DNA from: a virus
Taxonomy: Duplodnaviria > Heunggongvirae > Uroviricota > Caudoviricetes
Direction: 5' to 3' (one strand)
Virus record (IMG/VR): IMGVR_UViG_2548877011_000015
DNA length: 37,974 bases
A program made the position numbers and the translations under genes. The notes beneath the pieces are model-generated. The model was not told where the DNA came from. It worked only from the letters and a program-made list of their open reading frames with translations, and ran no database searches. Of the stretch, positions 4,803 to 16,690 are shown one piece after another. Positions within the stretch are counted from its first letter, which is position 1; the number at the start of each line of letters is the position of its first letter.

Positions 4803-5624
4803 ATGCACCACGGAATTCATCATTTCCATGGGACGCCTGTCTGGGGAAGTGCTGGCGACGTTCATCGTATTGCGGTGAGCGGAGCTGGCGCTTTCGTCTC
4901 CTATGTACGGCCAGATCAGATTGCGGCGTCCATTCAGCACGCTCAGGTCGTCGGCATTGATAACGGCGCATTTTCTGCATGGGTGCGTGGGCTAAAAATT
5001 AACTGGAGTGATTTTTATAAATGGCTCCTGAACTATTACCACCATCCTAAGGTCGCTTTTTTTGTCATTCCTGATGTTGTGGACGGAGGTGAACGTGACA
5101 ATGATGCCCTGATAAACGAAGTTCCGAAAATGTTCTACGGGAAGGCAACTCCCGTCTGGCATCTGCACGAGTCAATCGATCGGCTTATCGAGCTATGTCG
5201 TGAATGGCCTCGTGTCTGCTTTGGATCTTCTGGTGAATATGCGGCTATCAGAACTGCGCACTGGCATCGTCGTATGCAGGACGCTTTTGAAGCAATTTAT
5301 TGCCGACACAATTTCAAAACAGCTGTTCATGGTTTGCGCATGCTTGACGGTCGTGTGTTGGGAAATTACCCACTGGCGACTGCCGACAGTACAAATCTTG
5401 CCTGCAATGTCCCCAAATTTAATAGCAAATATCCTGAGCTGACGCGGGCTATTCAGGAGGCTGAGTATTCGCGCAATCTGACGGAAAAGGAGCTGAAAGC
5501 TGTCATTCTGAAAAACCGTTGCGCAATTTTAAAAGGTGCAATTGAAGCTGTTCGCCCACCTTCAGTTTCTGATTGGCTGTCGAATGGTTTGCAGCCTTCA
5601 CAGCTCGAACTGGAGATTGCGTAA
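4803..5624 (+). CDS. conserved early-region protein of unknown function (273 aa)
   Basis: ORF track 4794..5624 (GTG 4794 or ATG 4803); sits between dam and replication gene A; no motif confidently recognised (loose DxGxF / GSSG resemblance only). Confidence 0.5.
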
Positions 5625-7996
5625 TGAACTACAGCTATTCCTGGAATGCTGAGAAAAAAGCAATCAATCCTTACGTAGAGACAGAAGAGCAATCTTCAGT
5701 TTCTGCGCTTTCAAACCTGATCGCTCTGTACGCTGCCGATAACGAGCAGGAACAGCTGCGCCGCGAGGCACTGAGTGATCAGGTCTGGGAGCGTTATTTC
5801 TTTAATGAATCCCGTGATCCTGTCCAGCGCGAAATGGAGCAGGATAAGCTCATTAGTCGGGCAAAGCTGGCGCATGAGCAGCAGCGTTTTAATCCAGATA
5901 TGGTCATTCTGGCGGACGTCAATGCCCAGCCTTCCCATATCAGCAAGCCGCTGATGCAACGTATTGAATACTTCAGCAGCCTGGGCAGGCCAAAGGCTTA
6001 TTCCCGCTATTTGCGTGAGACGATTAAGCCATGTCTGGAACGGCTGGAGCATGTACGCGACTGTCAGCTATCCACTTCTTTTCGCTTTATGGCAAGCCAT
6101 GAAGGGCTGGACGGCCTGCTGATCCTGCCTGAAATGAGTCAGGATCAGGTGAAACGCCTGTCCACCCTGGTAGCTGCGCATATGAGCATGTGCCTTGATG
6201 CAGCTTGTGGCGATTTGTATGTCACCGATGACGTTAAGCCAGAAGAAATCCGCAAAACATGGGAAAAGGTGGCAGCGGAAACCCTGCATCTGGATGTCAT
6301 CCCGCCTGCGTTTGAGCAACTCCGCCGGAAAAGAAACCGCCGTAAACCCGTGCCCTATGAACTCATTCCGGGTTCGCTGGCGCGTATGTTGTGCGCTGAC
6401 TGGTGGTACCGGAAATTATGGAAGATGCGTTGCGAATGGCGGGAAGAGCAGTTGCGTGCTGTCTGCCTGGTCAGCAAAAAAGCATCTCCCTATGTCAGCT
6501 ATGAAGCCGTGATGCATAAACGTGAGCAGCGCCGTAAGTCGCTGGAGTTTTTTCGTTCTCATGAACTGGTGAACGAAGACGGCGACACGCTGGACATGGA
6601 GGATGTGGTAAACGCCAGCAGCAGCAACCCTGCGCATCGCCGCAATGAGATGATGGCCTGTGTTAAAGGCCTGGAGCTTATCGCGGAAATGCGCGGTGAC
6701 TGCGCCGTTTTCTACACCATCACCTGTCCGTCACGTTTCCATTCCACGCTAAATAATGGCAGGCCCAACCCAACTTGGACAAATGCGACGGTAAGACAAA
6801 GCAGTGATTATCTGGTCGGCATGTTTGCTGCATTTCGTAAGGCGATGCACAAAGCCGGATTGCGGTGGTATGGCGTGCGGGTGGCTGAGCCGCATCATGA
6901 CGGTACAGTTCACTGGCACCTGTTGTGTTTTATGCGCAAAAAAGACCGCCGCGCCATCACTGCATTACTGCGTAAGTTTGCCATCCGTGAAGACCGCGAG
7001 GAACTGGGCAATAACACTGGGCCGCGCTTTAAGTCTGAGTTGATTAACCCGCGCAAAGGTACGCCAACAAGCTACATCGCGAAATACATCAGTAAGAACA
7101 TTGACGGGCGTGGTCTGGCTGGCGAGATCAGCAAGGAAACGGGGAAATCCCTGCGTGATAATGCTGAATACGTTAATGCCTGGGCGTCTCTGCATCGTGT
7201 TCAGCAATTCCGCTTCTTTGGCATTCCGGGGCGTCAGGCTTACCGTGAACTGCGATTGCTGGCTGGTCAGGCGGCAAGGCAACAGGGGGACAAAAAAGCA
7301 GGTGCGCGGGTACTGGATAACCCGCGCCTTGATGCCATCCTGGCTGCTGCTGATGCTGGTTGTTTTGCTACCTACATCATGAAGCAGGGCGGCGTACTGG
7401 TTCCCCGCAAATATCACCTCATCAGAACCGCTTATGAAATCAACGAAGAGCCGACCGCCTATGGCGATCACGGCATTCGTATTTATGGCATCTGGTCACC
7501 TATTGCAGAGGGCAAGATCTGCACTCATGCCGTGAAGTGGAAAATGGTTCGTAAGGCCGTTGATGTTCAGGAGGCGGCAGCCGACCAGGGCGCTTGCGCC
7601 CCTTGGACTCGTGGCAATAACTGTCCCCTTGCTGAAAATTTGAACCAACAGGAGAAAGATAAATCAGCTGATGGGGACCCCAGAACGGACATTACCAGCA
7701 TGGATGACAAGGAGTTGCACGATTACCTGCACAGTATGAACAAAAAAGAGCGCCGGGAACTGGCTGCAAGGGTACGCCTGGTGAAACCGAAACGGCGTAA
7801 AGACTACAAACAGCAAATTACAGACCATCAGAGACTGCAGCTCGTCTATGAGCTGAAGTCCAGAGGATTTGATGGTAGCGAGAAAGAGGTCGATTTACTC
7901 CTTCGCGGCGGCAGTATTCCGTCAGGAGCAGGCCTGCGTATCTTCTATCGGAACCAGCGTTTGCAAGAAGATGATCAGTGGCGGAACCTGTATTAA
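5624..7996 (+). CDS. A: replication initiation protein A (rolling-circle nickase, P2 gpA-like)
   Basis: 790 aa from ATG at 5624 (TAATG overlap with upstream gene); size and position of P2/186 gene A; contains the paired-tyrosine region YIAKYISK. Confidence 0.85.
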
Positions 7997-8090
7997 TTTC
8001 GCGGGTTAACAATTCGTGCTCTTAATAATACCAGGCATATCAGGCTGATGAACGTAAAAAAACGTTTTACATCAGTAAGATTATTATACA

Positions 8091-8106
8091 CTGTAAATAT
8101 AAACAG
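8091..8106. promoter_or_regulatory. LexA (SOS) box CTGT-N8-ACAG
   Basis: ctgtaaatataaacag is a perfect CTGT-N8-ACAG match with AT-rich spacer, ~45 bp upstream of the tum-like ORF start. Confidence 0.7.
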
Positions 8107-8149
8107 TAGTTATACATACAGTATTGCGTGTGGTGTCATAGGAGGAAAG

Positions 8150-8338
8150 ATGCAGGACTATTTTTTGGAGTCTTTGAAGCTCCAGCGCATTGATTTTTTT
8201 CTTAAGCTTGTAGCGGCTAGTGAGTGTAGTGATGAAGAGAAGGGGCTGGCTCTGCAGTGGGTTTCTGAATTGACTGATGAACTCATGGCAAAAATCAGAA
8301 CCCACGAATACAACCGCTCAATGGATGTCATCAGCTGA
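8150..8338 (+). CDS. Tum-like SOS-inducible protein, N-terminal ORF (62 aa)
   Basis: ATG at 8150 with AGGAGGA SD; directly downstream of the LexA box, in the position of 186 tum. Confidence 0.45.
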   Translation: MQDYFLESLKLQRIDFFLKLVAASECSDEEKGLALQWVSELTDELMAKIRTHEYNRSMDVIS

Positions 8339-8348
8339 GGTGACTTTT

Positions 8349-8582
8349 ATGCGCATTGAAATAATGATCGATAAAGAGCAGAAGATTAGCCAGTCTACCC
8401 TGGACGCCCTTGAATCCGAGCTTTACCGCAATCTGCGCCCCCTGTATCCCAAAACGGTAATTCGTATCCGTAAAGGTAGCTCTAACGGTGTGGAACTGAC
8501 CGGACTGCAACTGGATGAAGAAAGAAAACAAGTGATGAAAATTATGCAGAAGGTGTGGGAAGACGACAGCTGGCTGCATTAA
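8349..8582 (+). CDS. DinI-family protein
   Basis: 77 aa MRIEIMIDKEQKISQSTLDALESELYRNLRPLYPKTVIRIRKGSSNGVELTGL...WEDDSWL is collinear with E. coli DinI (MRIEV...); GAGGTG SD upstream. Confidence 0.8.
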   Translation: MRIEIMIDKEQKISQSTLDALESELYRNLRPLYPKTVIRIRKGSSNGVELTGLQLDEERKQVMKIMQKVWEDDSWLH

Positions 8583-8590
8583 GAAACGTT

Positions 8591-8620
8591 GCCCCCAAGA
8601 GGATTTATCCTGTTGGGGGG
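8591..8620 (+). terminator. stem-loop after DinI-like gene (terminator candidate)
   Basis: gcccccaagaggat tt atcctgttggggg imperfect palindrome immediately after the stop, followed by a weak T stretch (agtttggg). Confidence 0.4.
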
Positions 8621-9070
8621 AGTTTGGGCAACGAGTGAAATGAGGTGTAAGGTGGGCGGTCATTTTGATAAGTGATCGTCCACTTTGTGTCAGAACCTGA
8701 TGTTTGTTGTACATTCGGACGAATAGGCGGCGTTGTTTGCTTTAAAAATAAAACAGGAACACTTTGAGAAAGTGAACAGGTGTATTTATTTGTTGCTGAT
8801 GAATGAGAGTAACTCTAATTTGGATAATTAGCTTGATAATAGGTCAGACGAAAATAATATTCCAGCACACTTTTGGTCGCAACAGGCATTAGTTAATTTT
8901 AAGTGATAAATTTTTATCCATAAATTAACACTAGTGTGTCATCTAGCGAAACCGAATCGCTTTAACTCATAACTTGAAGTTGAATCAGTGGGGTAGCAGT
9001 AGGCATGCCGGAACTGATAAACTGTGCAGAAGGCTAAACATTCATTCACTCGTGAGATAGTAGCTAAATT

Positions 9071-9937
9071 ATGCAAAGAATTATTCCTGATAAAAATTGG
9101 TGGGAAAAAGAGCGTATTAATCGTAAAGCATCATCAATATGCCCATATGCTAGTTCATACAGATGTCCTCGATACTATCAGAGTGTAGTTTTGCTCTCAA
9201 GCATCAATGTGATAGCTGGTATGGCAACTAGGAAAGAAAAAGAGTTGGGTGAATTTTGGGAAAGAACCACTTTCTCATCTTTATGTGATGAAGAAGTCCC
9301 TACAGTTACTACAAAAGAATATGGCGGCCTTGCATCAGTTAGTAATTTTTGCCCAGAAATATCATTTAGATATTTACACTACTACGCCGATTATATGTGT
9401 AAATATGTTGATGAGATAGATCAGGACACTGGCAGGCGTATTGCGGAAAAAGATAATTTAGAAAATGATTGGAAATATACATGGATGTCAGTCAATCCTA
9501 AATTTTATTTAGATTGCGATGTTTTTGAAAGTGTCAAAAATTTCAATGAAGAATTGGCTAGTGATTACTTAAAAAGATTGCACCCAAATATCGTTCAGCA
9601 AATAGATAGAATGAATAATTGCTTGGATAATAATGATCCGGCAGGTGCACTGCACGCAGCCTCTAATATTTTAGAAACTATGGCTAAGGAAATCACTCAA
9701 AACCCGAATGTGGCAAATGAGTCATTGGGTGGTTTTTTTAAACAGTTCGAAAAAATGTCAAAATTACCTAAGAATCTTATTGATGCTGTTAAAGATATTT
9801 ATGATTTACGCAACAAATTACCTACTGCTGGACACGGAAGCTTGAACAAGCCTGAATTGACTATGGTAGAAGCTATAACTATTGCGGCAATGACAAAGGC
9901 GATTTTAGAAATTGAATATCGAAGCAAAGCCATCTAA
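9071..9937 (+). CDS. hypothetical protein (288 aa), accessory island; possible Abi-like
   Basis: ATG at 9071; low-GC; N-terminal Cys cluster CPYASSYRCPRYY; C-terminal LRNKLPTAGHGS (R-N...G-H-G) reminiscent of Abi_C/HEPN-type motifs; occupies the P2 tin/old hotspot between the replication module and cos. Confidence 0.5.
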   Translation: MQRIIPDKNWWEKERINRKASSICPYASSYRCPRYYQSVVLLSSINVIAGMATRKEKELGEFWERTTFSSLCDEEVPTVTTKEYGGLASVSNFCPEISFRYLHYYADYMCKYVDEIDQDTGRRIAEKDNLENDWKYTWMSVNPKFYLDCDVFESVKNFNEELASDYLKRLHPNIVQQIDRMNNCLDNNDPAGALHAASNILETMAKEITQNPNVANESLGGFFKQFEKMSKLPKNLIDAVKDIYDLRNKLPTAGHGSLNKPELTMVEAITIAAMTKAILEIEYRSKAI

Positions 9938-10064
9938 CAAACCAAATTATGTGGTTCAAATTCCCGCTACACTTCTGTGTTGCCGCCAGCGTCTACTTAT
10001 CGCTGTGAGTTCAACGGGTGATGATGCGTTAGAGATCTCTGAATCGATTGAAGTCTAAGGTTGT

Positions 10065-10086
10065 CAGGGCTGTAACAGCAGCCCTG
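10065..10086. terminator. perfect 8-bp stem hairpin between convergent genes
   Basis: cagggctg taacag cagccctg between the 3' ends of the 9071..9937 (+) and 10187..10840 (-) genes. Confidence 0.35.
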
Positions 10087-10186
10087 TGTCATGAATGGAT
10101 TGCATATTAATTGACGAAGAACAGACTAATATCATCGATAGCTGTTTTCAAAAATAGACCAATAACAAACTGAGATGTTATCGTAT

Positions 10187-10840
10187 TCATTTCGATGATT
10201 GATCCAGATGTGTATATAACCATTGAAAGAGTTTTCTAATTTTTGTGATAGTATCTTTTAAATAATTTAAGGAGATTATTATATTATTTTCATTGTTTAA
10301 TGAAAGAGTAGGTGTTTTATCAATGATATTTTTTAAGGCTACAGCTGTGCTCATTTTTTTAATGTCTCCATTAGCATGAACTATGCAATTCCTTACTTTG
10401 TTAAACTCTGTCATGAATTGCCACTCTTGTGACAGGCCAAAGTTTATATCCATTAATTTTGTTAAATATCTTTTTGCTTTGTGGATGCCATCACCATTAA
10501 AATCGGTTACTGATATATTGGTGTTTACAATCCTTTGACATATATTGCAATAGTCGTTTAGGTTGTGCTCTAAGCATGAGTATAAAGATACCAAAGCAGA
10601 TTTATTAAAAATATTTGGTTGTATGTTAACTAAGAAATCATATTGCTCTGAATAATAGTCTTCTAAGTAATTAATATAATCGTCAGGAGCATTCTTTTTT
10701 TCATCTTCATATGCTTTTTTTAATTCCGCTAAGTCAACTCTGTTTTGGCCGCCTGCTCCTAGGATATATTTTTCGAAATCATCAATCTGCGCTTCAAGTG
10801 AATATCTTGATAGCTGTGCGAAAAGTTTGTATTTACTCAT
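10187..10840 (-). CDS. hypothetical protein (217 aa) with HEPN-like Rx4H motif
   Basis: ATG at 10838-10840; low-GC; VRNCIVHANG matches the R-x4-H HEPN signature near the C-terminal third; accessory hotspot location. Confidence 0.5.
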   Translation of the reverse strand: MSKYKLFAQLSRYSLEAQIDDFEKYILGAGGQNRVDLAELKKAYEDEKKNAPDDYINYLEDYYSEQYDFLVNIQPNIFNKSALVSLYSCLEHNLNDYCNICQRIVNTNISVTDFNGDGIHKAKRYLTKLMDINFGLSQEWQFMTEFNKVRNCIVHANGDIKKMSTAVALKNIIDKTPTLSLNNENNIIISLNYLKDTITKIRKLFQWLYTHLDQSSK

Positions 10841-11183
10841 CGGTATGCCATTCCTTTTTAATTATAAACCTTTGGATTAAAAGGTGCTGAAAATAGTAAC
10901 TCATTATTTTTGTTTGTAAAGGGGGTATTGTTTTTACTAGATCAAGATAAAACAATGGGAATATCCGCTTTTCGCTCACAGCGGACTTTCATCTTTGTAA
11001 ACCCGTATGATTAGCTTTTCAGCGGTCATTCAGATACGGATTTACGCTTCCCTTGGCTGTGCATGACTATGACGCATGAGATCGCATGATCGTTAGAGGA
11101 TCGTTTTTGCTGAGGCCAGCCAGAACTGGCGTGCTTTTGCTTATGTCGTGCAGGTGCATGAAAACCACTACATAAAGCGGGCA

Positions 11184-11202
11184 GGCGTGGCGGGGATACG
11201 AT
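11184..11202. other. cos-like cohesive-end site
   Basis: ggcgtggcggggatacgat followed by tgcgcgct, compared with the P2 left end GGCGAGGCGGGGAAAGCAC TGCGCGCT as recalled from memory; sits in a GC-normal segment (about 10960-11220) between two AT-rich islands. Confidence 0.5.
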
Positions 11203-11270
11203 TGCGCGCTAGGTATAAGTGTGTAAAATAATTCCAAAATAAATCATCCTAATGAAGTGAGAGGGTAATA

Positions 11271-12920
11271 ATGTTAGTCAAGAAAAATAAAAATTATAGT
11301 TTATATTTTTTAATTACAAATAATCAACAGATATCTGATTCTGGTAATTATATAAAAATAGTCCCATCAAGAAGCGATTGGAATGATTTTGGATATTTGA
11401 GTAGAGTCGAAATATCTATTTTTAATAAAAAAGAGTGTAAGGATATAATTTCACTGAATGGTTATATTGGTTTTTTGAATTCAGAGGAGGAACGAAATGG
11501 AAAAGCAGAACTGATAAGGCGAGTGAAGAAAAAGGAAGAATCTAATTTAAAGGATGAGGGGTTTAATGATTATTTTGTCATGCTTCAGGATATGAATAAT
11601 TATCGAAGACTAGTAAGATTTTTTGGGGTGAATGAATCCAAATATATATTAAATTTCATTAATGATGTTGTTTCTAAGAAAAGTGACGCTAGTGCAGAGA
11701 ATTTGAGGAAAAAAGCAATCTCTTCTGATATCTTTAATAAATCTTTCATTAGAGAGTCTGAGTCGTATTTTACTTTCAAAAATGCAGGAACAGTTCTTTC
11801 CGGTATTCAATATGAGGAGTTGGGTAATTTATCACAGCACATCAAGATTAGCTATTCGAATAAAGTTAATGAAGAAGATGTATCTTATGTTTTTAATTTT
11901 GATCACGAGCATGATTTACCAAAAAGAATTTCCATAATTATAGGCGAGAATGGTGTAGGAAAAAGCCAAACGCTTAGAGAAATCGCATTGGCTGCGATTA
12001 AAGGAAAGGATAATTTGGTGGCTGTAGTTGATTCTAACGGTGTGAGCATTGAAGAACGAATTCAAATTAGTAGGCTCATTGCTTTTTCTCCAACAAATGA
12101 AAGTAAGTGTTCATTTCCAACCGATAAAAGAATAAAATCATTGATATGGTACAAAAGATTGACTTTAAATCGTGAATCAAAATCCAAATTAAACTTGAAT
12201 GATTTAATAGTGCAACTAGCGAGGAGTAACGACGCTATCGGCTATAATCAAAGGTGGAATATATTTGTTGATGCACTGAGTGTTCTAAATAGTAACAACG
12301 ATTTAGTAATCAAATGTAGCGGTGAAAATTCACCATTTGTTAAATTAAATGAGCTTAATTCTCGAGGCGAAGAATCCAGACTATCATTATATTCTGAAAT
12401 TATTCTCTCTGGCGAGCCTTTGAGGCTTGTTGAAAATAAATGTTACCCTTTGAGTAGTGGGGAAATATCGTTTATTAAGTTTTGTGTACAAGTCTGTTTG
12501 TATATTGAGAATGGGACTCTTCTATTAATAGATGAGCCAGAAACACATCTCCATCCTTCATTTATTAATAAATTTATGGCATTGCTTGATAATTTATTAG
12601 AAAAGACAGGCTCTTCAGCTATCATAGCAACGCATTCGGTTTATCTTGTTCGGGAGGTTTTTAAGGAGCAAGTGACAATACTCAGAAGACGAGATGATGG
12701 GGTAATTGTTAGCGAAAAACCGAGATTGAGTACTTTTGGGGCGAATATAGGAAATATCTCATATTTTGTTTTCGGTGAGAGTGAACCAACTCAAATTTTA
12801 AATAAAGTAAAAAATAATATAATTGCAAAGAATATGTCTTGGGATGATGTTGAATCTAAATATAGCGAGGACTTATCACTTAATGTATTAACTGCGTTGA
12901 GAAATGAAATAGGTAATTGA
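11271..12920 (+). CDS. ABC/SMC-like ATPase with N-terminal extension (Septu PtuA-like)
   Basis: 549 aa; Walker A GENGVGKS (~aa 225), Walker B LLLIDEPETHLHP (~aa 417), H-loop ATHS; ~215-aa N-terminal domain of unknown type; GAGGGT SD; low-GC; stop is 1 nt before the next gene's start. Confidence 0.7.
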   Translation: MLVKKNKNYSLYFLITNNQQISDSGNYIKIVPSRSDWNDFGYLSRVEISIFNKKECKDIISLNGYIGFLNSEEERNGKAELIRRVKKKEESNLKDEGFNDYFVMLQDMNNYRRLVRFFGVNESKYILNFINDVVSKKSDASAENLRKKAISSDIFNKSFIRESESYFTFKNAGTVLSGIQYEELGNLSQHIKISYSNKVNEEDVSYVFNFDHEHDLPKRISIIIGENGVGKSQTLREIALAAIKGKDNLVAVVDSNGVSIEERIQISRLIAFSPTNESKCSFPTDKRIKSLIWYKRLTLNRESKSKLNLNDLIVQLARSNDAIGYNQRWNIFVDALSVLNSNNDLVIKCSGENSPFVKLNELNSRGEESRLSLYSEIILSGEPLRLVENKCYPLSSGEISFIKFCVQVCLYIENGTLLLIDEPETHLHPSFINKFMALLDNLLEKTGSSAIIATHSVYLVREVFKEQVTILRRRDDGVIVSEKPRLSTFGANIGNISYFVFGESEPTQILNKVKNNIIAKNMSWDDVESKYSEDLSLNVLTALRNEIGN

Positions 12921-12921
12921 A

Positions 12922-13785
12922 ATGAATAAATTAAAAAGACCTGTTTTTAAAGATTATTCTGCATTTAAAAAACTATCTGCAAATAAGAGATTAAAACATC
13001 ATTCTGTTCTGAATGGACAGGATACATTTATACTTAATGCATATAGATCGTACATAAAGAATAAAGGATATCTTAATGTCAATTCTTGTGGCGTATTGAG
13101 TAACAATATTGCTGAAGCTTTGAAATATTATTATAACAATCCCGCAAAGTGTTTATCTATAATTGATGATATAAGAGCAGCTAATTCTAACTCTCTATGT
13201 CCAATGTGTGGTTCAATGCATAGCGGGACTTTGGATCATGTTTTACCCAAGGAAAACTATCCAGAATTTTCTTTATTCACTAAGAATTTGGTTCCTGCTT
13301 GCAAATGTAATACTTTCAAAAGTACTACTATAGCTAATTCTGCAGGCCATCGGATGCTGCATCCATATTTTGATAATATATTAAAACAAAGATTAATATG
13401 TGCTAATTTTTCTAAATTAGGGCGAACACCTACAATTGATGTAAAAATCATAATTGACCCAATGTCACCAGAATATAACAATGTTAAGTATCATCTTGAT
13501 AATGTTGTTATCAAGAATAATATTAAGGGGTATTTGTCTGAACAATGGGAGTCGTTTTACTTATATCCTGAGCTTGTTATTAGAGGACTGAATAAGAGTC
13601 TTTCTACTTATAGCGATGTATATGAGTTGTTGACTCGCGAGTTGTTGCTGTTGGATGAAAAACATAAAGGTAAAAATAATTGGAATTCGGTTTTTGTAGC
13701 TGGGTTAATTCGACCTGATGTGATTAGGTGGATACTCTGTGAATTACATTTAGGTAACAGAAGTCCAGACGGTCGTCTCATATGA
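12922..13785 (+). CDS. HNH endonuclease (Septu PtuB-like)
   Basis: 287 aa; HNH core CPMCGSMHSGTLDHVLPKENYPEF...NLVPACKCN; tightly coupled to the upstream ATPase. Confidence 0.7.
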   Translation: MNKLKRPVFKDYSAFKKLSANKRLKHHSVLNGQDTFILNAYRSYIKNKGYLNVNSCGVLSNNIAEALKYYYNNPAKCLSIIDDIRAANSNSLCPMCGSMHSGTLDHVLPKENYPEFSLFTKNLVPACKCNTFKSTTIANSAGHRMLHPYFDNILKQRLICANFSKLGRTPTIDVKIIIDPMSPEYNNVKYHLDNVVIKNNIKGYLSEQWESFYLYPELVIRGLNKSLSTYSDVYELLTRELLLLDEKHKGKNNWNSVFVAGLIRPDVIRWILCELHLGNRSPDGRLI

Positions 13786-13795
13786 TTTTTTGCAT

Positions 13796-13821
13796 CTTCA
13801 GCGTGTATCTGCACGCTGAAG
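13796..13821. terminator. 10-bp perfect stem hairpin between PtuB-like gene and Q
   Basis: cttcagcgtg tatctg cacgctgaag, preceded by a T6 run on the + strand; separates convergent transcription units. Confidence 0.4.
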
Positions 13822-13892
13822 AAATTCATAAAAACTGCTGGCTATTAATAACTTTTTTTAGTTGTGTTAAAGAACCTCATTTAGTTATTACG

Positions 13893-14924
13893 TTAAGTAG
13901 CTAGTTTATAACTATCAAATTTAACAATGTTCTCACTTACCAATTTATTTATTTCCATCATTCTTTTTTGTAACGGTATTAACTCGTTACGTACAAACAC
14001 CAGGCTCGCCTTCTCCACATCCCCAAACCCCCCGACATTATTAGGCATAATCCCCATCATTTGCGGTGGCACACGATGCGCCGCCATCATGTCATCCCGG
14101 CTCACGTTCTTGATGTTCAGAAACTCATCCTTCGCCGCGACTTCTGACAACGGGATGATCTGAAGCCCGTCCTTTTTGCCGTTAGGCGAGTACATAAACA
14201 GATTGCGGAAGTTACCTGGTCCTTTGGCGCTTTTCATCGCATTGCGGAGGTTGTTCACATCCTCCTGGTTTTGCGCGGCATCGGTCATGTACATGATGAA
14301 GCCTGCATGACTGCCGTTAATGTAATACTTTCGGCGGAACAGCGTGGCGGACTCGTTGAGCAGGGCTGACGGAATGGCAGAAAGGTAACCTGGCAGGCCG
14401 TAGATCTCCTGGTTGATGTCCGGTTCCATCAGATGAAAAATGCTGCCTTTCGTGAACTGATACGGCTGGGTTGTCATACCGTATTGCACAAACCAGTAGG
14501 TATCCAGGTCTAACCCGCGTCGGGTGTATTTTGCCAGAGCAGGCTCAAGAGCGATGACCTCTCCGAACCGGTTTGTGCGTTTCTCCAGGTAAGCGTTACC
14601 AAATACCAGATAATCCTGCACAAAACGTGAAAAAGCCTGCTGGCTGAGCAGCGGGTGAGGGATGTAGGTACTGGTCAGAATGTTGCACTTTACTGCAATC
14701 GGGGAGCTATGATGTACGGCAGCGCGGAAGGTTCGCGCCAGTCCGTCAAAACTCACTGGCGGCTCATACCAGCGATCTGTCTGTACGCATTCCACATAGT
14801 CCAGTAGTTCACGGCGGTCCAGAACCGGAACGGGATCGCCGAAGCTGAATGCTTCGGCTGAAGCCTGGTTTTTATGCTGGATCTGTTTCGTCGACGCAGC
14901 GCGGTTTTTCTTAATCTTTCCCAT
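13893..14924 (-). CDS. Q: portal protein (P2 gpQ-like)
   Basis: 343 aa; first late gene next to cos on the minus strand; ATG at 14922-14924 overlaps the P stop (ATGA). Confidence 0.85.
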   Translation of the reverse strand: MGKIKKNRAASTKQIQHKNQASAEAFSFGDPVPVLDRRELLDYVECVQTDRWYEPPVSFDGLARTFRAAVHHSSPIAVKCNILTSTYIPHPLLSQQAFSRFVQDYLVFGNAYLEKRTNRFGEVIALEPALAKYTRRGLDLDTYWFVQYGMTTQPYQFTKGSIFHLMEPDINQEIYGLPGYLSAIPSALLNESATLFRRKYYINGSHAGFIMYMTDAAQNQEDVNNLRNAMKSAKGPGNFRNLFMYSPNGKKDGLQIIPLSEVAAKDEFLNIKNVSRDDMMAAHRVPPQMMGIMPNNVGGFGDVEKASLVFVRNELIPLQKRMMEINKLVSENIVKFDSYKLAT

Positions 14925-16690
14925 CAAAAAATCTCCACAATATTGCTGGTATTGGCGGATTCGCCCTGCAGCGGTTCGTTAAACAATGCGTGCATCGTTG
15001 CCCAGGCCAGATCGGCGTGGCTGGCTTCTTCGCTGCGGCTGGCTTCATAGGTTGGGCGGTTGCCACTGGCGGTGGTGGCGCGACGGATTGCCATGAATGA
15101 CTGCGCAATGTCGGTGTGCCCGGCGTCAAACTCCAGACGGCGGTGGCTGATAATGTCGTAGGCCTTGAGTACCAGGGCGTTTTTAACGTTGGGGTTGTAG
15201 ACAAACTCCCGGACGGCAGGAAAGAACGCTTTCACGTTCTCATAAACCCCGTGACCAACGCCGGTCGAGTCGATACCGATGTATGTCACGTTGTACTGTT
15301 CAGTCAGTTTTTTGATGGCATCAGCCTGGGCGCGAAAGTCCATCCCGCGCCACTGGTGACGCTCAAGAATGCGGAACTTGCCGCCCGGCACGGCTGGCGG
15401 AGCCACCACCACGCATCCGGCACTGTCGCCGTTCTGCGTACCTTTTGCCGGGTCATAACCGATCCACACTTCGCGCCAGCCAAACGGGCGCAGGGCCAGT
15501 GCATGAAAATCGGTCCAGACTTCCCAGCTGTCCACCATACACGCCTGCAGTTCGCTGAGCGGGAACACGGACGCGAGATCGTCCACAAACTCGCACATCA
15601 GCAGGTTCTGGTATTCGTCCGGGCTGTACTCCATGCGCAACTGGTCAAGGTCGAACAGGTTACAGCCGCCGCGCACTGCATCTTCCACGGTGACTATCTG
15701 GCGGTACTGCCCGTCTGCGCACAGCAGGCCGGGGGCCAGATTGCTGTGGGACAGGTCGATGTCCACCTTATCGGCTTTATTGCGCCCACGGTTGAACAGC
15801 GCACCGGACCAGAACGGATAAGCACTGTGTGTCAGGCTGGATGGCGTGGAAAAATAGGTTTGTCGCCATTTTTTGTGGATAGCCATACCGGAAGCCACTT
15901 TGCGCAGCTCCTGGAATTTCGGTATCCAGAAATATTCATCCAGATACAGGTTGCCGTGGTAACTCTGGGCCGTGCGGGCATTGGTGCCGAGGAAGTAAAG
16001 CGTGGCTCCGTTAGGAAGCACCATCGGATCGCCTTTCAGCTCCACCTCGACTTCTTTGGCGAAGTCTATGATGTACTGCTTAAAGACGTGAGCCTGTGCC
16101 TTGCTGGCGGAAAGAAAAATCTGGTTACGTCCGGTAAGCAGAGCGTCAATCAGGGCTTCACGGGCAAAGTAAAAGGTCGCGCCGATCTGGCGTGACTTCA
16201 GCAGGTTGCGGATGCGGTTGGTTTTTCCGGCTTCCCACCAGTGGCGCTGGTAGTTAAACATGGAGGAATGGAAGATTTCTTCCAGCTTCTCAATCTGCTC
16301 ATCGGTGAAAACATTCTTTTCCGGCTGACGGCGCGGGCCTTTGTTGCGGTTGGCGACGTTAGGGTTTAAGTCGGCTTCGTTGCCGCCATTGTTAAACTTG
16401 CCGATCCGCGCGTGGCGCTCCGACTGGCGCGCCAGCAGGTCAATTTCTTTGAAATCTTTCCCTTCTTTGTGCTCCTTCATAATGAGCTGGCAGTAGCGTG
16501 CGGCGGTGGTGAGCTGCATCTGATCCAGCGGCCCATAGTCACCCCACTTGTCGCGTTTTTTCCAGCTGTGAACGGTTGCAACTTTCTCGCCCAGCATTTC
16601 AGCAATGCGGGCGACGCGGTATCCCTGAAAGTACAGCAGCATGGCCTGCCGACGGGGATCGAGATCTGCGGGTGTCAGTGTGGTGTTCAT
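14924..16690 (-). CDS. P: terminase large (ATPase) subunit (P2 gpP-like)
   Basis: 588 aa, P2 gpP size and position; divergent from the O-N-M operon. Confidence 0.85.
   Translation of the reverse strand: MNTTLTPADLDPRRQAMLLYFQGYRVARIAEMLGEKVATVHSWKKRDKWGDYGPLDQMQLTTAARYCQLIMKEHKEGKDFKEIDLLARQSERHARIGKFNNGGNEADLNPNVANRNKGPRRQPEKNVFTDEQIEKLEEIFHSSMFNYQRHWWEAGKTNRIRNLLKSRQIGATFYFAREALIDALLTGRNQIFLSASKAQAHVFKQYIIDFAKEVEVELKGDPMVLPNGATLYFLGTNARTAQSYHGNLYLDEYFWIPKFQELRKVASGMAIHKKWRQTYFSTPSSLTHSAYPFWSGALFNRGRNKADKVDIDLSHSNLAPGLLCADGQYRQIVTVEDAVRGGCNLFDLDQLRMEYSPDEYQNLLMCEFVDDLASVFPLSELQACMVDSWEVWTDFHALALRPFGWREVWIGYDPAKGTQNGDSAGCVVVAPPAVPGGKFRILERHQWRGMDFRAQADAIKKLTEQYNVTYIGIDSTGVGHGVYENVKAFFPAVREFVYNPNVKNALVLKAYDIISHRRLEFDAGHTDIAQSFMAIRRATTASGNRPTYEASRSEEASHADLAWATMHALFNEPLQGESANTSNIVEIF

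Follow-up and report, generated by a model that had tools for sequence, protein, structure and literature searches.

A solitary gene of a P2-like Escherichia coli prophage combines a four-cysteine N-terminal domain with a divergent AbiJ/Abi_C-type HEPN domain: a candidate one-protein anti-phage system

The closest known kind of system to the gene described here is the AbiJ/Abi_C family, to which AbiJ (Abi-859) from Lactococcus, SadR from Staphylococcus aureus and Taranis from a Vibrio cholerae integron belong. Abi_C proteins are ribonucleases (RNases) that possess an R-phi-X(2-6)-H motif, and SadR mutants in the R, N and H residues lose RNase activity as well as defence (PMC13590631). N-terminal domains of the AbiJ family are also found on TIR, restriction endonuclease (REase), PLD and kinase effectors, and Anantharaman et al., who described the same architecture for AbiJ and NTD1-5, proposed that such N-domains sense infection and restrain the toxin (PMC3710099). 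Similar features are known from RAZR (PD-T7-4) of E. coli, a ring-activated zinc-finger RNase and itself a single-protein abortive-infection system, in which an N-terminal Cys4 domain is combined with a divergent C-terminal HEPN domain; in this validated RNase, R146 and H154 are separated by an Rx7H spacing and are catalytically required (PMC13017515). Here we analyze a gene for a 288-amino-acid protein (positions 9071-9937, plus strand; ATG start, stop codon included) in the virus record IMGVR_UViG_2548877011_000015, whose 37,974 nucleotides are referred to as the window and harbor a P2-like E. coli prophage. We consider it fairly probable that this gene encodes a self-contained, one-protein anti-phage system of the abortive-infection type which is carried as cargo by temperate phages.

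The window protein shares with the AbiJ/Abi_C family the size of a single polypeptide of about 280-290 amino acids, a non-catalytic N-terminal domain followed by a C-terminal Abi_C HEPN domain with the motif R-N-x(n)-H-G, and the carriage on mobile elements. It differs from that family in scoring below the cut-off for PF14355 and in that its R-N is followed by a spacer of 6 residues, which is the limit of the reported 2-6 range. In common with RAZR, it has an N-terminal Cys4 domain, predicted here to bind metal, a divergent C-terminal HEPN domain, and an R and an H eight positions apart (R247/H255, as compared to R146/H154). However, the zinc finger of RAZR is its most variable region and binds phage ring proteins, whereas the N-domain of the window protein is an alpha/beta domain of 165 amino acids with cysteines distributed over 125 residues and is conserved across hundreds of clusters. 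Also, the HEPN domain of RAZR is of the DUF4145 type, while only 1 of 34 homologues of the window protein gave a weak DUF4145 match, and the PADLOC model for PD-T7-4 did not match at E<=1. Other single-protein HEPN systems, such as DARNA (PD-T7-3), ApeA, HepS or DS-11 (CBS-HEPN), have unrelated sensor domains and domain orders, and PADLOC gave no sequence match to any of these four. AbiJ-NTD1 and NTD2 have been described as mostly alpha-helical domains of about 100-140 amino acids in an article whose main text never says 'cysteine' (PMC3710099). By these descriptions they would differ from the window N-domain with its four conserved cysteines and alpha/beta structure, and neither name occurred among the Pfam matches of the window protein or of its N-domain relatives, in a Pfam copy whose content of such models was not checked. 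Pfam families AbiJ_NTD3, NTD4 and NTD5 matched neither the window protein (E<=1) nor any of 150 N-domain representatives (E<=0.001).

The sole PADLOC match of the 288-aa protein was a non-significant one to PDC-S32 (E 0.0099, 13.6 bits). The PDC-S32 model is of similar length (285 positions) and the two align at equivalent positions (aa 201-268 versus model positions 199-263), but the match is confined to the HEPN region and PDC-S32 itself is only a predicted candidate. NCBIfam gave no match and PHROGs a single weak one, located in the C-terminal half and none in the N-domain, so that the protein indeed belongs to no named defence family represented by a significant match in these three collections, as had been stated in a preliminary description of this DNA. 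No mention of its RefSeq accession WP_032317446.1 ('hypothetical protein') was found in the literature, the DefensePredictor supplements, as far as covered, contained neither this accession nor those of three related copies, and a recent survey of P2 hotspots mentions neither AbiJ nor Abi_C. Regarding its naming, the kind of protein is a known one, an AbiJ-like N-domain fused to an Abi_C HEPN domain, and the N-domain appears to be new.

That the open reading frame (ORF) is a real gene and did not arise by chance follows from 63 homologous clusters at 90% identity, from a start position that is kept across the homologue alignment, and from ratios of non-synonymous to synonymous substitution rates (dN/dS) of 0.22-0.23 in comparisons with L003 and L004, two copies of 81% identity, indicating that the gene is under purifying selection (dN/dS 0.23). 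Its GC content amounts to 35.2%, whereas gpA has 52.6% and the structural half of the prophage 53.9%. The ORF is flanked by replication gene A (gpA; 5573-7996) and a DinI-like gene on one side and by the portal/terminase genes (13893-16690, minus strand) on the other, and its site is the GpA-GpQ defence hotspot known from P2-like phages (PMC9122126, PMC13586616). With regard to the ORF, its low GC content and its position between the replication genes and the portal/terminase end, these data agree with the preliminary description. The latter had also reported about 450 bp of AT-rich non-coding DNA upstream; such a gap is present, although it is slightly longer (488 bp) and less AT-rich (39.1% GC). 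It extends from 8583 to 9070 on the plus strand, starts directly after the DinI-like gene (end at 8582) and presumably contains promoter and leader.

The C-terminal HEPN domain

The C-terminal region of the protein (aa 172-288; 9584-9934, plus strand) is a divergent HEPN domain of the AbiJ/Abi_C type, for which we propose a role as RNase effector. The best Pfam match of the whole protein was Abi_C (PF14355) at aa 227-279, with an E value of 0.0017 and a score of 18.8 bits. This match recurred in 10 of 34 aligned homologues, every time below the threshold, and the only other recurrent Pfam match among them was the weaker DUF5600 (4/34). A cluster representative with 97% identity carries a precomputed PF14355 match, a C-terminal fragment with 98% identity is named 'abortive infection family protein' by NCBI, and a relative with about 75% identity appears in UniProt as 'Abortive infection protein-like C-terminal domain-containing protein'.

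Within this domain, the motif LRNKLPTAGHGS (aa 246-257; 9806-9841, plus strand) contains the putative catalytic pair R247 (9809-9811) and H255 (9833-9835). As read from the printed alignment blocks, both residues are retained in 29 of 29 full-length rows, and so are G256 and the helix-1 signature DPxGxLHAAxNILETMAK, while a few homologues have G or S instead of N248. All three full-length representatives at the 50% cluster level keep the R-N-x6-H-G motif as well. The motif is not lost among homologues, since R and H persist in all of these full-length rows and in the three representatives. Written as R247-N248-KLPTAG-H255, it corresponds to X = 6 and falls within R-phi-X(2-6)-H, with a polar residue after the R.

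An AlphaFold2 model of the full protein had a mean predicted local distance difference test (pLDDT) score of 84, and its last ~112 residues form a four-helix up-down bundle that superposes on solved HEPN domains. The highest superposition values were obtained for 2hsb (AF0298 HEPN; 13.8), 1ufb (TT1696; 11.5), 3o10 (sacsin HEPN; 11.2), 5hy3 (LsoA; 10.3) and 5yep (HepT; 10.0), with RnlA, Csm6, AbiV and HepS lower in the list of structural matches. The resemblance of the R-N...G-H-G segment to Abi_C/HEPN domains, noted in the preliminary description, is borne out by PF14355 as best though sub-threshold match, by the agreeing database names and by the retention of R247 and H255, and the Pfam search and the structure comparison that had been suggested as checks pointed to the same kind of domain.

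When a local profile of the HEPN domain was used for hmmsearch, the helix-1 signature and RNxxPxxGHG were aligned to the Abi_C region of protein P0188 (E 0.001). P0188 has the same N-domain and, behind it, an Abi_C domain scoring above the Pfam cut-off (53.8 bits) with the motif RNVHGTGHG. Comparing the HEPN profile with this one sequence by hhalign was not informative. A search for HEPN-only proteins yielded four fragments only. On plasmid pCP3 of Rhodococcus qingshengii (L035 3524-4360), a 278-aa protein with the nearly identical HEPN motif RRNTEPTAGHG shows 39% identity over 112 aa, and its N-terminal domain is unrelated, cysteine-free and without a Pfam match, which suggests that the HEPN module is also exchanged between N-domains.

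The N-terminal four-cysteine domain and its exchangeable partners

The N-terminal domain (aa 1-165; 9071-9565, plus strand), a proposed sensor or regulator, is of the alpha/beta type and was modelled alone by AlphaFold2 with a pLDDT of 85 and a predicted template modelling score (pTM) of 0.81. It contains Cys24 (codon tgc, 9140-9142), Cys32 (tgt, 9164-9166), Cys94 (tgc, 9350-9352) and Cys149 (tgc, 9515-9517), all on the plus strand. Counted over 149 N-domain representatives, Cys24, Cys32 and Cys149 are each at least 99% conserved, and Cys94, part of a conserved NFCPE motif, forms the sole column that is invariant in 150 of 150 sequences. The N-terminal cysteine pair of the preliminary description, CPYASSYRCPRYY, is present at aa 24-36; what had been missed is that it belongs to a four-cysteine domain of about 165 amino acids. 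Among the same representatives, a histidine at position 145 is at least 99% conserved (the clade of the window protein has a phenylalanine), and E74, E96, D114 and D117 are each at least 90% conserved. In total, about twenty residues remain near-invariant throughout hundreds of clusters in which the effector varies. For the full-length subfamily, the mean identities of the two halves are similar, 52% and 61%. Four near-invariant cysteines in a cytoplasmic domain most likely point to a structural or sensing metal centre, as judged from the sequence.

The N-domain appears to be undescribed, with no counterpart in Pfam, PDB or BFVD. No Pfam family was found over it in 150 diverse representatives, Foldseek against BFVD gave a best E value of 0.39, the fold search did not match it to known sensor folds, and a profile search of PDB chain sequences, a set for which inclusion of the RAZR structures 9Y9C/9Y6U was not confirmed, produced nothing significant. 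In contrast to this lack of described relatives, searching 1.84 billion cluster representatives with an N-domain profile identified 654 proteins at E<=1e-3, 552 of them at E<=1e-10. Among the 150 matches listed, with lengths of 154 to 819 aa, nearly all align only to profile positions 1 to ~160, usually at their own N-terminus. The domain is spread from Gammaproteobacteria to Desulfobacterota, Verrucomicrobia and Nitrospirota.

Behind the N-domain, 80 C-terminal regions of at least 80 aa fall into 38 unrelated sequence clusters. Effectors identified in the 150 representatives comprise TIR_2 (19/150), TIR (11), CAP12/Pycsar-type TIR (5), DpnII-MboI restriction nuclease (3), PLD (2) and canonical Abi_C (1), together with SEFIR, Schlafen/AlbA, kinase and GGDEF domains and, at locus L015, HNH. 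PADLOC models PDC-S66, PDC-S35, bSEFIR, Argonaute-associated REase and PDC-S05 match the effector halves only and never the N-domain, and one TIR-bearing relative is located between RES and GmrSD genes. A single transmembrane helix is present at the end of 16 of 69 short tails, and 22 of 149 representatives (P0071, P0104, P0153 and 19 others; see also loci L012 and L013) possess instead the motif 'KPxxxG-phi-x-phi-N/D ... RLxxWW(L)xR'. Judged by their domain matches, the identifiable C-terminal partners of the N-domain are predicted toxic effectors of the kinds typical of immune systems.

The KPxxxG proteins are about 200 aa long and consist of the N-domain and a conserved tail of about 30 aa that looks amphipathic and basic. 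For the short tails, membrane attack or oligomerisation may be considered as possible roles.

Mobility, genomic contexts and other cargo of the hotspot

The gene resides in a mobile cassette of 1.49 kb (8685-10170, plus strand), which consists of the ORF, 386 bp upstream and 233 bp downstream. Over its whole length the cassette is 95.6% identical to a copy in a lambdoid prophage (L002 7001-8492), and it excludes all P2 neighbours, the homology ending 17 nt before the adjacent 217-aa gene. The gene was detected in 18 of 5,426 complete E. coli genomes and in nine viral contigs of IMG/VR. In a CP4-57-like island, a copy with 81% nucleotide identity is inserted exactly between Lamassu (LmuA/LmuB) and Gabija (GajA/GajB). 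More distant homologues occupy the equivalent portal-to-GPA hotspot in Serratia P2-like elements, beside 3HP or a SIR2-STAND protein, and in a Salmonella prophage a homologue adjoins a DUF4145 HEPN protein and a GT4-conflict glycosyltransferase. A further homologue is found in a P1-like IncY phage-plasmid. In Vibrio cholerae, a 64%-identical homologue (L025 4845-5998) forms a lone-ORF integron cassette between two of nine 140-nt repeats, with 16 nt from the upstream attC repeat to the start codon. An all-against-all BLAST of neighbours at 15 loci revealed no shared neighbour gene. The solitary cassette, the integron copy and the varied loci lacking a common neighbour argue for an autonomous single-gene unit that is repeatedly found among defence systems, and the earlier proposal of a single-gene system is supported by the gene moving alone.

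In all three places listed, 122 bp separate the homologue of the Salmonella prophage from the DUF4145 HEPN protein (232 aa; L018 6181-6879) encoded upstream of it. Pfam family and approximate size of this protein are as expected of RAZR, but it had no PADLOC match at E<=1e-5. The V. cholerae homologue has no UniRef source and is probably absent from strain N16961.

In the region upstream of the ORF, a weak sigma-70-like site was located at 8833-8861, although sites of this kind are no more numerous in the region scanned than expected from shuffled sequence, and an inverted repeat at ~8589-8633, just 3' of dinI, was seen in the sequence. A type III toxin-antitoxin system of the AbiF or AbiV type was considered and rejected. 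No tandem or direct repeats were found in 8500-9070, and hence no RNA resembling a type III antitoxin; no Rfam family matched in 7900-14100, and the integron copy has only those 16 nt upstream. Between the two convergent genes, and inside the cassette, the hairpin CAGGGCTG-taacag-CAGCCCTG (10066-10087), read from the sequence, is a possible terminator that was not reported by the terminator scan because it is not followed by a T-run. For the DinI-like gene, the mechanically predicted ORF starts at 8277 (101 aa) and the RefSeq form at 8349 (78 aa), both ending at 8582, and the Pfam DinI match spans aa 38-100 of the long form.

The hotspot contains further cargo. The minus-strand ORF convergent with the 288-aa gene (10187-10840, 217 aa) carries the canonical HEPN Rx4H motif VRNCIVHANG and matches PADLOC RTasHEPN with an E value of 1e-5; its best Pfam match (E 0.006) stays well under the cut-off, and NCBIfam and PHROGs gave no match. 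In a Megablast search with its DNA, near-full-length matches were obtained in 9 E. coli genomes only, the other matches covering a short segment. Located outside the mobile cassette, it is a candidate for a separate single-gene defence protein. A third cargo module (11271-13785) encodes a 549-aa ABC-type ATPase and a 287-aa HNH nuclease which match PADLOC PDC-M01A and PDC-M01B (E 2e-55 and 8e-34, respectively), and this pair also shows weaker matches to Septu PtuA. At ~10964-11211 there is a non-coding element of 150-250 nt that is found in 1,216 of 5,426 complete E. coli genomes. In two genomes examined it is placed between the DinI-like gene and the first hotspot cargo gene. In BL21 this cargo is the retron St85 effector, in CEA224S a ParA plus RelA/SpoT pair. 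In the window, DinI and this element are separated by the insertion of the 288-aa cassette and the 217-aa gene; in NCTC9064, 36 nt of the element are found upstream of the copy of the 288-aa gene (L003 6829-6864). It looks like a conserved leader of the hotspot, a promoter or a recombination anchor.

Proposed mode of action and rival explanations

In the mechanism that we propose, the C-terminal AbiJ/Abi_C-type HEPN domain would be the ribonuclease effector and would dimerise like other HEPN enzymes, thereby building a composite active site from R247 and H255. The N-terminal domain of 165 aa would most likely bind a metal (Zn or Fe-S) through its four cysteines and may act as a sensor or gate by which the RNase is held inactive as long as no infection cue is perceived; once activated, the HEPN domain would cut cellular RNA and translation would stop in the infected cell. 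The defence context of the gene, with the Septu-like PDC-M01 in the P2 hotspot, Lamassu and Gabija in the island, and 3HP or SIR2-STAND at the Serratia loci, supports a system of this type. Since the N-domain is conserved across hundreds of relatives whose effectors are swapped, a molecule or state that is itself conserved seems a likelier cue than a rapidly evolving surface of a phage protein. Tentatively, and with less confidence than for the anti-phage role of the gene, it is conceivable that the N-domain represents an undescribed, widespread immune sensor with a Zn or Fe-S centre that detects a conserved cue (for instance a small molecule, or a change in redox or metal status) and switches on whichever HEPN, TIR, REase, PLD, HNH or membrane tail is attached to it, making the E. 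coli P2-borne gene the founder of a new one-protein defence superfamily.

A number of observations weigh against a one-protein abortive-infection system. The Abi_C score of 18.8 bits is lower than the Pfam gathering cut-off of 24 bits, the x7 spacing from R to H is outside the canonical Rx4-6H of HEPN domains, and the loop with the catalytic His (aa 254-260) is modelled with a pLDDT of <50. The conservation of the N-domain is unlike that of direct phage-protein sensors such as the RAZR zinc finger. No record of the INPHARED phage collection carries the gene. Also, in the lambdoid copy (L002 7388-8254), present in E. coli ARS-C301 and 7 other genomes (8 of the 18), codon E115 is changed from GAG to a TAG amber stop, in addition to R34Q; the stop lies inside a conserved DEID motif, and this copy is annotated as two ORFs. 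Cluster members of 150 aa, the length of the downstream ORF of L002, are listed on >700 contigs versus 299 for the intact E. coli protein, so that the gene seems often to be dispensable or costly. Such frequent inactivation is consistent with a costly or toxic gene.

If that cost reflected a toxin-like RNase or a factor of the phage life cycle, the gene might serve as an addiction or stabilisation module or in host takeover or superinfection, and would have no anti-phage role. Toxin-antitoxin systems indeed commonly have HEPN domains as toxins, and modules of this kind abound in integron arrays and prophages (PMC3710099); frequent inactivation by stop codons suggests a cost in this case as well. 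However, no antitoxin gene is shared among the 15 loci, no RNA repeats are found upstream, the gene is repeatedly encountered at defence hotspots as the immediate neighbour of Lamassu, Gabija, 3HP and Septu-like systems, and the N-domain also occurs in fusions with immune effectors of the TIR, REase and PLD kinds, all of which renders this explanation rather improbable. The HEPN domain might be non-catalytic and serve binding or dimerisation only, in which case the protein would act by sequestration of a component of the phage or the host. Nuclease activity is absent from several HEPN families (PMC3710099), and the non-canonical x7 spacing and the poorly modelled His loop would fit such a role. 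Yet R and H are present in all 29 full-length rows, the x7 spacing is catalytically required in RAZR, and Abi_C relatives such as SadR are active RNases, so that we judge a non-catalytic HEPN domain to be quite improbable.

Two further explanations concern possible partners of the protein. It is unlikely that it is the effector arm of a signalling pathway in which the N-domain, by analogy to CARF, SAVED or cyclic nucleotide monophosphate (cNMP)-binding domains, binds a second messenger made by an enzyme encoded elsewhere and activates the HEPN domain. The set of effectors behind the N-domain (CAP12/Pycsar-type TIR, membrane tails, HNH, REase and HEPN) is as found on effectors of CBASS, Pycsar and type III CRISPR systems, and many near-invariant residues are what one would expect of a ligand pocket; but neither a cyclase nor any other partner is conserved adjacent to the gene across 15 loci, the gene travels alone, in the form of a 1.5-kb cassette or of a single-ORF integron cassette, and known sensor folds were not matched in the fold search. 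The conservation pattern of the N-domain nevertheless keeps this explanation alive, even with no signal-producing partner next to the gene. A two-gene system formed with the convergent HEPN-like neighbour of 217 aa (10187-10840, minus strand) is very improbable. The two genes are adjacent in this prophage, both encode HEPN-type motifs, and the neighbour matches RTasHEPN (1e-5), but the cassette shared with lambdoid prophages stops 17 nt short of the neighbour, whose near-full-length matches by Megablast are limited to 9 E. coli genomes. Moreover, the lambdoid copy L002 and the island copy L003 have different neighbours, and other genes are listed at the integron and plasmid loci. A linkage of the two genes was rejected in view of the cassette boundary and the narrow distribution of the neighbour.

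With a one-protein abortive-infection system as the favoured explanation, the gene would bear on how infection is sensed, which is the main open question for most abortive-infection systems. It provides a compact single-gene case in E. coli, whose proposed sensor half is common to hundreds of protein families with the killing domain as their only difference, and the 1.5-kb cassette with its native upstream region is a directly tractable unit in this host. Both the structure and the ligand of the N-domain would be new, given that Pfam, PDB and a viral structure library hold no counterpart. Since the proposed sensor half is shared, one trigger found in E. coli could account for an entire superfamily with TIR, nuclease, RNase and membrane effectors.

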